Part shown: positions 22,318 through 28,860 of the stretch, in pieces | Layout of the letters: each line of letters begins with the position of its first letter | Numbering within the stretch: position 1 is the stretch's first letter | Origin: Escherichia coli | GTDB lineage: Bacteria > Pseudomonadota > Gammaproteobacteria > Enterobacterales > Enterobacteriaceae | NCBI RefSeq assembly: GCF_022846255.1 | Contig: NZ_AP025682.1 | Direction: 5' to 3' (one strand) | DNA length: 64,000 nt | Translations under genes and position numbers: made by a program | The notes under the pieces: model-generated | What the model was told of the DNA's origin: nothing | The model's database searches: none | What the model saw: the letters and a program-made list of their open reading frames with translations, nothing else

Positions 22318-23520
22318 TTACAGTGATTTAAGCGCGATGTCCTCATCTGTCAGCAGTTTCGCATCAAACGTTTTGCCGCTCTGGATCCATTTGCGGATTG
22401 GGCGAATCTCACGGCCCTGATTCAGCGTGACTGCACCGATAAGCACGCCGTTTTGCAGATTAAACCAAATCGCCTTCTGAGTTTCCGGGTTGCCACGACA
22501 AAGCCAGTCATCACCACGCATATCGCCAATAAACTGTAAGTTATCACTGTACTGATCGCTCCAGAACCACGGCGGCGGCAGTCGCGGAAGCGGTAGCCCC
22601 AACATTGCGCCAGTGGCAATTTGCGCCTGGTTATTGGCGTTTTCCCAACTTTCGCAGCGGTGTAGTGCGCCATTATCAAGACGGGTGATTGCCACATCAC
22701 CACCGGCAAAGATCGCGGGATCGCAGGTGCGGCAAGCCTCATCAATGACAATGCCATTGGCAGTATCAAGGTTGGCCTCGCGAGCCAGTTGGTCGTTGGC
22801 GCTGATACCAATACCGTAAATCACCACATCGGCCTGAAGCGTTTCGCCACTTTGCAGCGTCAGTTCTACGTTTTCACCATCGACCACATGTTCAATGGCA
22901 TTATTGAGCAGAATGTGCACACCAGCCTGCTGATGGCGCTGCAAAAGATAGCGTTGCACGGGCGGTGGTGCATTACGGCCCATGACGGTTGCCGCCAGTT
23001 CAATCACTGTCACCTTACATCCGCGCTGCGTGGCGCTGGCAGCCAGTTCCAGACCAATAGTTCCGGCACCGACAATCACGACTGACCGTTCGGGCTGCAG
23101 AACTTCTCGCAGTCTGGCGGCATCACCGGCATGGCGCAGGGTAAAGCAGCGTTCTCCCAGTGCATCAAGCAACGGCAGCGGTCGAGCTGCCGCGCCGGTT
23201 GCTATAAAAAGCTGATCCCAGTGCCAGCTTTCGCCGTTAGCTAACATTAACTCTCGTGTGTCGCGGCCCAATGTTTTGATGGTTACACCGGAATGCAGAT
23301 GAACATTGTTTTCCTGCCACCAGTGAGCGGGTAACACAGACTGCAACTGTGGGGAATCTTCCAGCAACATGGATTTCGAGAGCGGGGGGCGTTCATAAGG
23401 AAGATGTTGCTCATCGGAAAACAGATGCAGCTCACCGGTGAACCCTTGCTGGCGTAGCGAGGCCGCAGCCATTGCCGCCGCTTGCCCGCCACCGACAATA
23501 ATGATCGTTTTTTCTTTCAT
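22318..23520 (-). CDS. hcaD: 3-phenylpropionate dioxygenase ferredoxin-NAD+ reductase component
   Basis: 400 aa; FAD motif IVGGGQAA and NAD motif [10 protein letters not shown]. Confidence 0.92.
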
Positions 23521-23529
23521 CGTGCTTCC

Positions 23530-24342
23530 TTAAAGATCCAGCCCAGCCGCTACGTGGCGAATGCCGCGAATCGCTAAACCCGCATCAGCGTTGATCATCA
23601 CACCGCTTAATGCGCGATTATTGCGCCGCGATGCCAACATCACATACGGACCCGTAAAATCCGCCGGTTGCGGGAAAAATTGCAGCGGTAATATGGCGGC
23701 AATTTTCTCCGGCGTCAGAGACTGCATTATCGAGGTTTCACTTTGCCCGAGCGCCTGTGGGCCGCGCAGGTCGCTGGCCATACCACACGGGCCGACGCCA
23801 TTCACCCGCACTTTCGGTGCCAGTTCATAAGCCAGTTGGCGAATAAGTCCGGTTGCGGCATGTTTACTGGCGGTGTACAGCGGGCCACCGCCGCCGGGAT
23901 ACCAGGCGGCATTTGACAGTGTGAAAATCATGCTGCCTTCACTGGCGATTAACGCCGGAGCGCAGGCTTTTGCGCCCAGCAGGTAACCGAGTACGTTGAC
24001 GTTAAACAGCTCGTGGAAGCCGGTTTCGAGCGTCTCTGCGGGAGTATTAACCAGTGAGGCATTGTGATCCCAGATGCCCGCATTGCCGATAAAACAATCC
24101 AGTTTGCCAGAACGAGTCAGGATCTGATCGATCGCGCGTTGATAATCGGTATAACAGGTCACGTTGCCTTCCACCGCCAGAATATGTTCACCAAATCGCT
24201 GACGCAGACTGGCGACTTTCGCCGCCGACAGTTCCAACGTGGCAACCTGCGCGCCTTCTTCGATAAATCGCTCGACCAGCGCCAGGCCTAATCCCGAACC
24301 GCCGCCGGTAATAAAGATGGACTCGTTATGCAGATCGCTCAT
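23530..24342 (-). CDS. hcaB: cis-dihydrodiol dehydrogenase (SDR family)
   Basis: 270 aa short-chain dehydrogenase ([13 protein letters not shown] catalytic motif). Confidence 0.92.
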
Positions 24343-24659
24343 GGCTGCGCCTCCGGTAAGTCGATGAAGATGTCACCACCTTCAACGTGTACTGGATAAG
24401 TGGTTAGCGGATCGGTGGCGGGCAGGCATAATGCTTTCCCCGTTTTCAGGCAAAAACTGGCGGCGTGCAGCGGGCACTCCACCGTGGCGTCATCTTCCAG
24501 ATACCCTTCTGACATCGACGCATTACCATGGCTGCAACGATCGTTAATGGCATAAAACTCGCCGCCTACGTTGAACAGGGCGATGACGGGCGAGGTATCG
24601 ATCCGGAGAGCCTCACCCTCCGGCACATCCGCAACGGGACACGCATAAATTCGATTCAT
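24339..24659 (-). CDS. hcaC: Rieske-type ferredoxin of the 3-phenylpropionate dioxygenase
   Basis: 106 aa; Rieske ligands CSH...CPLH; 4-nt overlap with hcaB. Confidence 0.92.
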
Positions 24660-26535: not shown

Positions 26536-26670
26536 ATTTTTTAATCCTGAAAGATAAGATGTATTGACCTTCTATTTTTGTGCCATAAGGATGTTGCTGG
26601 TTGGTTGCTGATATGTGAAATAGTTAATTTCTACCAGCTGAGACGTTTTTTCGATAACAAGGGGAAGGTG

Positions 26671-27561
26671 ATGGAACTACGGCATTTACGCTATTTCGTC
26701 GCAGTGGCGCAGGCACTGAACTTTACCCGTGCGGCGGAAAAACTGCATACCTCACAGCCTTCGTTAAGCAGCCAGATCCGCGATCTTGAAAACTGTGTCG
26801 GTGTTCCGTTACTGGTGAGGGATAAGCGCAAAGTCGCGTTGACGGCGGCGGGAGAATGTTTTCTCCAGGACGCGCTGGCAATCCTCGAACAAGCGGAAAA
26901 TGCCAAATTACGGGCGCGGAAAATTGTTCAGGAAGACAGACAATTAACCATTGGCTTTGTGCCATCGGCGGAAGTGAATTTACTGCCAAAAGTATTACCG
27001 ATGTTTCGTCTCAGACAGCCAGACACCTTAATTGAGCTGGTGAGTTTAATCACCACGGAACAGGAAGAAAAAATTCGCCGTGGTGAACTCGACGTCGGCT
27101 TAATGCGCCATCCCGTTTATAGCCCGGAGATTGATTATCTGGAGCTTTTTGACGAACCATTAGTGGTGGTGTTACCGGTTGATCACCCTTTAGCACATGA
27201 AAAAGAGATCACTGCCGCGCAACTGGATGGCGTGAATTTCGTCAGTACTGATCCAGCGTATTCCGGTTCGCTTGCGCCGATCGTTAAAGCGTGGTTTGCG
27301 CAAGAAAACAGCCAGCCAAATATCGTCCAGGTGGCAACGAATATTCTGGTGACCATGAATCTGGTGGGGATGGGGCTGGGCGTCACTTTGATACCCGGTT
27401 ATATGAATAATTTTAATACCGGCCAGGTGGTATTTCGACCCATTGCCGGAAATGTGCCTGCCATTGCTTTACTGATGGCGTGGAAAAAAGGGGAGATGAA
27501 GCCGGCATTACGCGATTTCATCGCCATTGTGCAGGAACGTTTGGCATGCGTAACGGCATAA
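26671..27561 (+). CDS. hcaR: LysR-type transcriptional activator of the hca operon
   Basis: 296 aa from ATG 26671 (MELRHLRYFVAVAQALNFTRAAEKLHTSQPSLSSQI = LysR HTH); divergent from hcaE. Confidence 0.92.
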   Translation: MELRHLRYFVAVAQALNFTRAAEKLHTSQPSLSSQIRDLENCVGVPLLVRDKRKVALTAAGECFLQDALAILEQAENAKLRARKIVQEDRQLTIGFVPSAEVNLLPKVLPMFRLRQPDTLIELVSLITTEQEEKIRRGELDVGLMRHPVYSPEIDYLELFDEPLVVVLPVDHPLAHEKEITAAQLDGVNFVSTDPAYSGSLAPIVKAWFAQENSQPNIVQVATNILVTMNLVGMGLGVTLIPGYMNNFNTGQVVFRPIAGNVPAIALLMAWKKGEMKPALRDFIAIVQERLACVTA

Positions 27562-27720
27562 TTACGCATTATTTTTGCAACATGCGTCGCGGCTCGCAGT
27601 TTTTTAGTGCTTGTGAACTGGCGTTACAGACATCAGGAAGCAGGCTCGAATATTCTTATTTTTCAACTTGCACCAACATTCGATTAACCCCAGACTAACG
27701 CCTCCTGACGGGAGGGACTC

Positions 27721-28860
27721 ATGGTTTTGCAATCCACGCGCTGGTTGGCGCTCGGCTATTTCACATACTTTTTTAGTTACGGCATTTTTCTACCTTTCTG
27801 GAGCGTCTGGCTTAAAGGGATTGGTTTAACGCCAGAAACCATCGGCCTGTTATTGGGGGCGGGTCTGGTTGCCCGTTTCCTCGGGAGTTTGCTCATCGCG
27901 CCCCGCGTCAGCGATCCTTCCCGCCTGATTTCCGCCTTGCGCGTGCTGGCACTGCTGACACTTCTCTTTGCTGTCGCCTTCTGGGCGGGGGCGCACGTAG
28001 CGTGGCTGATGCTGGTGATGATTGGCTTTAACCTCTTTTTCTCACCGCTGGTACCGTTGACCGATGCACTGGCGAATACGTGGCAAAAGCAGTTCCCGCT
28101 TGATTACGGCAAAGTGAGACTGTGGGGCTCGGTGGCGTTTGTCATTGGCTCGGCGCTGACGGGCAAACTGGTCAGTATGTTTGATTATCGGGTGATCCTC
28201 GCGCTGTTGACGTTGGGCGTGGCATCCATGCTGCTCGGCTTTCTCATCCGTCCGACGATTCAGCCACAAGGGGCAAGCCGCCAGCAGGAGAGCACCGGCT
28301 GGTCTGCGTGGTTGGCGTTGGTTCGCCAGAACTGGCGCTTTCTGGCCTGCGTTTGTTTATTGCAGGGGGCACATGCGGCCTATTACGGTTTTAGCGCCAT
28401 TTACTGGCAGGCAGCTGGCTACTCGGCCTCGGCGGTGGGGTATTTGTGGTCGCTGGGCGTGGTGGCGGAAGTCATTATCTTTGCGCTGAGTAATAAACTT
28501 TTCCGCCGTTGTAGTGCACGCGATATGCTGTTGATCTCGGCGATTTGCGGCGTAGTGCGCTGGGGCATTATGGGAGCAACGACGGCGTTGCCGTGGTTGA
28601 TAGTGGTGCAAATTCTGCATTGCGGTACCTTCACGGTCTGCCACCTGGCTGCCATGCGCTATATTGCTGCTCGCCAGGGTAGCGAAGTCATCCGTTTACA
28701 GGCGGTTTACTCTGCCGTCGCGATGGGCGGCAGTATCGCCATCATGACCGTTTTCGCCGGTTTCCTGTATCAATATCTCGGCCACGGCGTGTTCTGGGTG
28801 ATGGCGCTGGTGGCGCTTCCGGCAATGTTTTTGCGCCCGAAAGTTGTTACCTCATGCTGA
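27721..28860 (+). CDS. hcaT: MFS transporter (putative 3-phenylpropionate permease)
   Basis: 379 aa, 12 predicted TM helices. Confidence 0.88.
   Translation: MVLQSTRWLALGYFTYFFSYGIFLPFWSVWLKGIGLTPETIGLLLGAGLVARFLGSLLIAPRVSDPSRLISALRVLALLTLLFAVAFWAGAHVAWLMLVMIGFNLFFSPLVPLTDALANTWQKQFPLDYGKVRLWGSVAFVIGSALTGKLVSMFDYRVILALLTLGVASMLLGFLIRPTIQPQGASRQQESTGWSAWLALVRQNWRFLACVCLLQGAHAAYYGFSAIYWQAAGYSASAVGYLWSLGVVAEVIIFALSNKLFRRCSARDMLLISAICGVVRWGIMGATTALPWLIVVQILHCGTFTVCHLAAMRYIAARQGSEVIRLQAVYSAVAMGGSIAIMTVFAGFLYQYLGHGVFWVMALVALPAMFLRPKVVTSC

Follow-up and report, generated by a model that had tools for sequence, protein, structure and literature searches.

A standard, apparently intact hca locus for 3-phenylpropionate dihydroxylation in Escherichia coli

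Intactness and identity of the hca locus

We analysed a stretch of 64,000 nucleotides of Escherichia coli DNA (NCBI RefSeq assembly GCF_022846255.1, contig NZ_AP025682.1), called the window below and numbered from its first letter, with respect to the hca genes, which encode a 3-phenylpropionate dioxygenase system. Judged by its sequence, the interval 22318–28860 is the standard chromosomal E. coli hca locus in an intact state, a reading to which we give a probability of about 0.95. All seven genes (hcaE, hcaF, hcaC, hcaB, hcaD, hcaR and hcaT) have the length, start codon and stop codon of their K-12 counterparts, and the alignment to K-12 revealed neither a frameshift nor an internal stop. 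The original prediction for this DNA had named frameshifts or premature stops relative to the K-12 Hca proteins as the decisive point to check; the comparison was run and none were found in the seven genes. The span of the locus, the gene order and the gene identities that it had proposed were also confirmed, by the list of open reading frames (ORFs) and by collinearity with K-12 MG1655 and with the isolate AF3. Nothing sets the locus apart from the E. coli hca cluster as previously described; the feature is already known.

At the nucleotide level, the locus is 97.5% identical to that of K-12 overall, with a divergence of 1.3–3.4% per gene. The encoded proteins differ from those of K-12 at a total of 26 amino-acid positions (HcaE 1, HcaF 1, HcaC 0, HcaB 3, HcaD 15, HcaR 4 and HcaT 2), the substitutions in HcaE and HcaF being R403H and I104V, respectively. 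The Nei-Gojobori ratios of nonsynonymous to synonymous substitution rates (dN/dS) against K-12 were 0.00–0.09 for six genes and 0.205 for hcaD, which indicates that every gene is under purifying selection, the weakest being that on the reductase. In a megablast search with this region, 5,424 of 5,426 complete E. coli genomes gave a match, which was in every case chromosomal and carried the annotation hcaT, hcaR and hcaEFCBD. The highest identity, 99.5%, was seen with AF3, SCU-172 and MSB1_4I.

The ORF list, which covered positions 20000–31000 of the window, places five co-directional ORFs on the minus strand, corresponding to hcaE-hcaF-hcaC-hcaB-hcaD, and hcaR and hcaT divergently on the plus strand, where a LysR regulator and an MFS (major facilitator superfamily) transporter had been predicted. 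The end points of the locus are the stop codons of hcaD (22318) and hcaT (28860). The genes are as follows.

hcaE, 25174–26535, minus strand: oxygenase alpha subunit, 453 aa, with a Rieske [2Fe-2S] domain and a catalytic non-haem iron domain
hcaF, 24659–25177, minus strand: oxygenase beta subunit, 172 aa
hcaC, 24339–24659, minus strand: Rieske-type ferredoxin, 106 aa
hcaB, 23530–24342, minus strand: cis-dihydrodiol dehydrogenase of the SDR (short-chain dehydrogenase/reductase) family, 270 aa
hcaD, 22318–23520, minus strand: ferredoxin-NAD+ reductase, 400 aa
hcaR, 26671–27561, plus strand: LysR-type activator, 296 aa, divergent from hcaE
hcaT, 27721–28860, plus strand: MFS transporter, 379 aa

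A protein was called an equivalog when its score lay above the curated NCBIfam cut-off of the corresponding Hca family model. All seven proteins exceed their cut-offs, with E-values from 2.6e-56 to 9.4e-286: HcaE scores 947.8 bits with NF042946 (cut-off 830), HcaF 309 bits with NF042947 (230), HcaC 188.2 bits with NF007422 (113), HcaB 498.1 bits with NF042950 (450), HcaD 848.2 bits with NF007286 (447) and HcaR 567 bits with NF007385 (356, aligned over residues 1–295), while HcaT scores 705.6 bits with TIGR00902 (698.9) and 623.7 bits with NF008346 (259). Because of these E-values and of the DNA match in 5,424 of the 5,426 complete E. coli genomes, a chance match is not at issue. The Pfam domains are Rieske and Ring_hydroxyl_A in HcaE, Ring_hydroxyl_B in HcaF, Rieske in HcaC, adh_short in HcaB, Pyr_redox_2 and Reductase_C in HcaD, HTH_1 and LysR_substrate in HcaR, and MFS in HcaT. 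Beside the alpha subunit, the beta subunit, the Rieske-type ferredoxin and the FAD/NAD(H) reductase are thus all encoded, each with solved homologues. The exact sequences of the seven proteins are already present in public collections under Hca names; five of them occur on at least 1000 contigs each, among them HcaE with H403, and HcaD (WP_137501575.1) and HcaT (WP_137501576.1) occur on 4 and 3 contigs, respectively.

The cofactor-binding and catalytic motifs are also in place. Both of the Rieske motifs predicted to be intact are present, in HcaE as C85-R-H87...C105-P-Y-H108 (CxH-X17-CxxH) and in HcaC as C42-S-H44...C62-P-L-H65. HcaD has GxGxxG/A motifs at residues 10 and 151, and HcaB contains the SDR motif Y156-x3-K160. 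The 2-His-1-carboxylate iron ligands of HcaE are presumably H213, H218 and D371. These residues align with H224, H230 and D378 of BphA1 (1uli), and are identical in the HcaE structure 8k0a.

Gene overlaps and translational coupling

The overlaps of 4, 1 and 4 nt that had been described for the operon are found in the ORF list at exactly the coordinates given. The hcaE stop and the hcaF start share an ATGA (25174–25177), the hcaF stop and the hcaC start share the A of TGATG (24659), and the hcaC stop and the hcaB start share another ATGA (24339–24342). The hcaB/hcaD junction has no overlap; its 9-nt gap, GGAAGCACG (23521–23529), belongs to an AAGGAA ribosome-binding site serving hcaD. An AGGAGG Shine-Dalgarno sequence is present upstream of the hcaF start. 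Over the 30 nt that precede each start, the sequence agrees with K-12 save for a single substitution, 26 nt ahead of the hcaB start.

Unidirectional gene pairs in E. coli and 1,695 other species are spaced at −4 and −1 nt far more often than at any other distance (Huber et al., PMC10666635). These two spacings bring about tight translational coupling via termination-reinitiation, and are enriched among genes for the subunits of heteromeric complexes, while a small class of E. coli gene pairs is spaced near +10 nt (PMC10666635). The hca operon fits this general pattern, with −4 between the alpha and beta subunits, −1 between the beta subunit and the ferredoxin, −4 between the ferredoxin and the dehydrogenase, and a reductase gene that has its own ribosome-binding site after +9. 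By analogy, the oxygenase subunits and the ferredoxin would most likely be translated in a coupled manner, through termination-reinitiation at the stop/start overlaps.

Overlaps specific to this strain were considered and rejected: the junctions match those of K-12, apart from the substitution upstream of hcaB, and other genera share the overlaps. The Citrobacter hca operon has the same spacing as the window (−4, −1, −4, +9), and Serratia retains hcaE/F (−4) and hcaF/C (−1), with variation at the remaining two junctions. Overlaps of −4 occur likewise at mhpD/F and mhpF/E of the K-12 mhp operon. The tight overlaps are an ancestral and generic operon feature, with nothing special to the strain.

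Control regions and flanking features

Three further features lie within the locus.

hcaE/hcaR divergent control region, 26536–26670, no strand: 135 bp
iroK frame, 27496–27561, plus strand: the final 21 codons of hcaR; corresponds to the small protein IroK (b4706) of the K-12 annotation
Terminator-like hairpin, 27546–27569, plus strand: spans the hcaR stop codon, with an 8-bp stem followed by a T-rich tail; a match of the consensus scan only

The control region is identical to that of K-12 except for one base at 26609, which is GCTGATATG in the window and GCTAATATG in K-12. Direct reading of the interval showed a short dyad, GAAAT-N5-ATTTC, located 8 nt from the changed base, which we regard as a putative HcaR site. 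An inverted-repeat search with a 6-nt seed found just a CAGCTG palindrome in this region, and a consensus sigma-70 scan gave no match in the interval 26536–26670. The consensus scan of the region for promoters and terminators, including the hairpin at 27546–27569, gave no more matches than shuffled sequence. Since the scan matches are no more numerous than in shuffles, and none falls in the control region, what we say of regulatory sites is limited to the near-identity with K-12.

The start of hcaR is assigned to the ATG at 26671, since the alignment with the NCBIfam HcaR model begins at residue 1 of the resulting 296-aa protein and the K-12 annotation agrees. A 327-aa ORF that begins with TTG at 26578 was rejected as hcaR, being merely a 5′ extension of the ATG 26671 form. 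In the window, the iroK frame translates to MKPALRDFIAIVQERLACVTA, with S18C relative to K-12, which is equivalent to S293C in HcaR.

The hcaR/hcaT intergenic region (27562–27720) has three differences from K-12 upstream of hcaT. In laboratory evolution, single changes in the −10 region of hcaT raise its expression (PMC10249474). At its 3′ end, hcaT overlaps the convergent csiE by 9 nt (28852–28860, TCATGCTGA), and the same overlap is found in K-12. In the collinearity comparison, the locus is flanked by yphA-yphB-yphC on one side and by csiE-yfhR-suhB on the other, as in K-12. The window as a whole extends from purL to der/sinH.

Predicted pathway and catabolic capacity

Gene identity, integrity and layout come from the present analysis, and the pathway, its regulation and the subunit stoichiometry from the literature; we infer that the particular set of alleles in the window would be active. 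HcaR, a LysR-type regulator responsive to 3-phenylpropionate and cinnamate, would turn on the divergent hcaEFCBD operon. In K-12, trans-cinnamate allows HcaR to activate the hcaE promoter (P_hcaE), and the operon is subject to catabolite repression (bioRxiv 10.1101/2021.10.08.463720). HcaD, HcaC and HcaEF belong together as a Rieske dioxygenase of the three-component type. Electrons would pass from HcaD, the FAD/NADH reductase, to the Rieske ferredoxin HcaC, and from there to the Rieske non-haem-iron oxygenase HcaE3F3, which would make the cis-2,3-dihydrodiol of the substrate. The dihydrodiol would then be re-aromatised by the SDR dehydrogenase HcaB to 2,3-dihydroxyphenylpropionate, which would pass to the unlinked mhp meta-cleavage pathway. 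HcaT would serve as an accessory importer.

According to the literature on K-12, mhp meta-cleavage yields succinate, pyruvate and acetyl-CoA. The hca genes convert 3-phenylpropionate just to 2,3-dihydroxyphenylpropionate, and growth also requires mhp (PMC10249474). Strains deleted for hcaR, for hcaE-hcaD or for the mhp cluster no longer grow on 3-phenylpropionate; deletion of hcaT leaves growth intact and reduces uptake-dependent pigment formation (PMC10249474). The lower-pathway genes mhpB-C-D-F-E, needed for a complete hca plus mhp capacity, are not found within the window; the K-12 mhp cluster is located about 2.3 Mb from hca. Among the 5,426 complete E. coli genomes, 4,836 (89%) carry at least 80% of mhpR-mhpE, and the cluster was scored as absent or incomplete in the other ~11%, where less than 80% of mhpR-mhpE matched.

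Because growth needs mhp, which lies outside the window and is absent or incomplete in ~11% of genomes, the sequence supports the upper pathway rather than catabolism of the compound. The functional aromatic-acid catabolic capacity that the original prediction had ascribed to the strain is therefore retained in part: the hca upper pathway looks functional, given its intact frames and motifs, whereas catabolism as a whole finds no support in this DNA. The lower pathway is probably present elsewhere in the genome of the strain.

Weighing of alternative explanations

The sequence offers no argument against a standard hca locus, and a few observations leave some uncertainty. The Mhp proteins have no match in the window (tblastn, E ≤ 1e-5), and the hcaE/hcaR control region contains the single base change described above. 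HcaD carries 15 substitutions relative to K-12, its exact allele is found on only 4 contigs, and its residues M92, T303 and G304 are absent from both K-12 and the closest complete genome. The nearest solved relatives outside E. coli are the biphenyl, benzene and cumene dioxygenases, as would be expected if the locus encoded a paralogous ring-hydroxylating dioxygenase of the biphenyl, toluene or benzoate type with another substrate. This is extremely improbable, as the scores with BphB_TodD (303) and benA (176) lie far below the respective cut-offs of 460 and 781 while all of the Hca equivalog models are exceeded, and the DNA occupies the orthologous chromosomal site and shares 97.5–99.5% identity with hca as annotated in E. 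coli. A paralogous, non-hca dioxygenase is thus already refuted by DNA identity, synteny, the K-12 alignment and the family-model scores.

The variation in HcaD and in the control region bears instead on whether a locus with intact frames could be cryptically inactive, through a missense or regulatory change, for example that in the rare HcaD allele or at base 26609. We consider this very unlikely. Although the hcaD dN/dS is the highest of the locus, a value of 0.2 still denotes purifying selection, and AF3, the nearest complete genome, has 11 of the 15 HcaD changes as well. Several changes, such as V150 and G167, move towards the residue of solved homologues, M92, T303 and G304 occupy sites that vary when HcaD is aligned with the solved reductases 3fg2 and 1d7y, and no cofactor-binding motif is affected. 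HcaD and HcaT are indeed rare as exact alleles, and natural inactivation is found in relatives, as in the isolate AF10, whose hcaE is frameshifted; however, HcaE, HcaF and HcaC of the window are identical or nearly so to those of K-12. Even with hca intact, the strain might be unable to use 3-phenylpropionate or cinnamate if mhp were missing or broken elsewhere, the upper pathway then ending in a dead-end catechol. The lack of Mhp matches in the window, the ~11% of genomes below 80% of mhpR-mhpE and the effect of mhp deletion on growth (PMC10249474) leave room for such a state, as does the existence of strains with a single cluster, such as ED1a, which has mhp without hca (PMC2617782). It is nevertheless unlikely, since 89% of E. 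coli genomes carry mhp, and the literature ties mhp loss mainly to B2 lineages that are also without hca (PMC2617782), while the strain of the window has hca. The intact, standard E. coli hca locus thus remains our preferred reading.

As an observation in its own right, HcaD varies far more than any other protein encoded here, accounting for 15 of the 26 amino-acid differences from K-12.

Distribution of the locus and boundaries of the missing block

Of the 5,424 genomes with a match, 4,345 (80%) carry at least 80% of the locus and about 1,079 do not, so that a complete hca locus is the majority state in E. coli and not a universal one. The listed examples without most of the locus (H53–H60) match only from window position 27633 onward, that is, over the hcaT promoter region, hcaT and csiE. 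In SA186, the missing segment is exactly window 22305–27632 (5.3 kb), with its ends 13 nt beyond the hcaD stop and 71 nt beyond the hcaR stop. It is replaced by a 198-bp spacer containing a REP (repetitive extragenic palindromic) element (8803–9000 of the retrieved locus), and hcaT is retained as an orphan. No direct repeats were visible at the SA186 indel breakpoints. The spacer was considered as a remnant of hca and rejected, as it has no hca similarity and matches only REP-like repeats.

The hca operon was reported to be specifically absent from all B2 strains (Touchon et al. 2009, PMC2617782), and a subsequent pangenome study counts hca among the clusters that ST131 lacks (PMC9205054). The absence from B2 is accordingly already published; the exact boundaries and the filler sequence may not be. 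The presence of hca argues against phylogroup B2 for the strain, and the practical value of the locus is that of a strain marker only. If the genes are expressed, the strain could at least dihydroxylate dietary phenylpropanoids. The significance is otherwise small, this being a textbook catabolic operon with a solved oxygenase structure and with every allele already in databases.

Two other differences from AF3 were seen elsewhere in the window. At 59328–64000, downstream of der, the megablast match to AF3 ends, and two plus-strand ORFs, 60035–62230 (731 aa) and 62242–63222 (326 aa), occupy the position at which AF3 has sinH, encoding an intimin-like inverse autotransporter, and a SinI-family gene. 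By position, these ORFs look like a divergent allele of the sinH adhesin locus. At about 41735–41744 the alignment breaks, leaving about 770 bp of AF3 without a counterpart; an IS1A insertion located between sseA and timP in AF3 (AF3 locus 23243–24011) is absent from the window at this point.

Comparison with known systems

The closest system is the K-12 hca cluster (hcaT-hcaR / hcaEFCBD, b2536–b2542; Diaz, Ferrandez & Garcia 1998, J Bacteriol 180:2915, as cited in PMC9205054 and PMC10249474). It shares with the window the genes, their order, orientation and lengths, the start and stop codons, the overlaps, the ribosome-binding sites and the neighbours, and the sole differences are allelic variation. 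The likeness extends to the solved E. coli K-12 HcaEF complex (PDB 8k0a/9l1w), which is listed as alpha3beta3 (PMC12445004). HcaE of the window is identical to 8k0a_A at 452 of 453 residues, and HcaF matches the chain 8k0a_B over its full length (E 1.1e-114). Residue 403, which is R in the structure and H in the window, belongs to a stretch that differs between HcaE and BphA1.

Modules of the same content, hcaR-hcaEFCBD, are found in Citrobacter, where the module sits between yphH and glyA (4972–10218 of the retrieved locus), and in Serratia (4983–13362 of the retrieved locus). The Serratia module is directly followed by genes for a LigB-type dioxygenase, a hydrolase, a hydratase and an acetaldehyde dehydrogenase (mhpB/C/D/F-like). 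Since neither locus has hcaT beside the module, linkage to hcaT is common to neither genus. Within E. coli, comparison of window 19000–32000 with AF3 showed just 6 differences in 23500–28000, from hcaB to the 5′ part of hcaT, and a divergence of 1–3% in both flanks (yphC-hcaD and hcaT-yfhR). This mosaic suggests a recombination tract that may cover the core of the hca module, and exchange of the block as a unit would fit the near-identity of the hcaB-hcaR core with the nearest genome and the divergence of its flanks. We raise, as a tentative idea that is at present rather doubtful, the possibility that the 5.3-kb hcaR-hcaEFCBD block is a discrete, relocatable metabolic cassette in the Enterobacterales, separate from hcaT. 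The sharp boundaries of the indel in E. coli and the different chromosomal sites of the module in Citrobacter and Serratia would be in keeping with this idea. If it were true, HcaT, which is kept without the operon and is dispensable for growth on the substrate, might have a primary role unrelated to hca.

More distantly, the biphenyl, toluene and cumene systems (BphA1A2A3A4/BphB and TodC1C2BA/TodD) are likewise three-component Rieske dioxygenases, with the same four-protein electron-transfer architecture of a reductase, a Rieske ferredoxin and an alpha-beta oxygenase, and with an SDR dihydrodiol dehydrogenase acting next. The window proteins match the solved structures of these systems with E-values of 1e-25 to 1e-136, the closest solved relative of HcaB being BphB (1bdb), and fall below the Bph/Tod family cut-offs. 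Unlike the Bph and Tod systems, hca has a phenyl-carboxylic acid as its substrate and a LysR-type activator, and its meta-cleavage genes are unlinked in E. coli.

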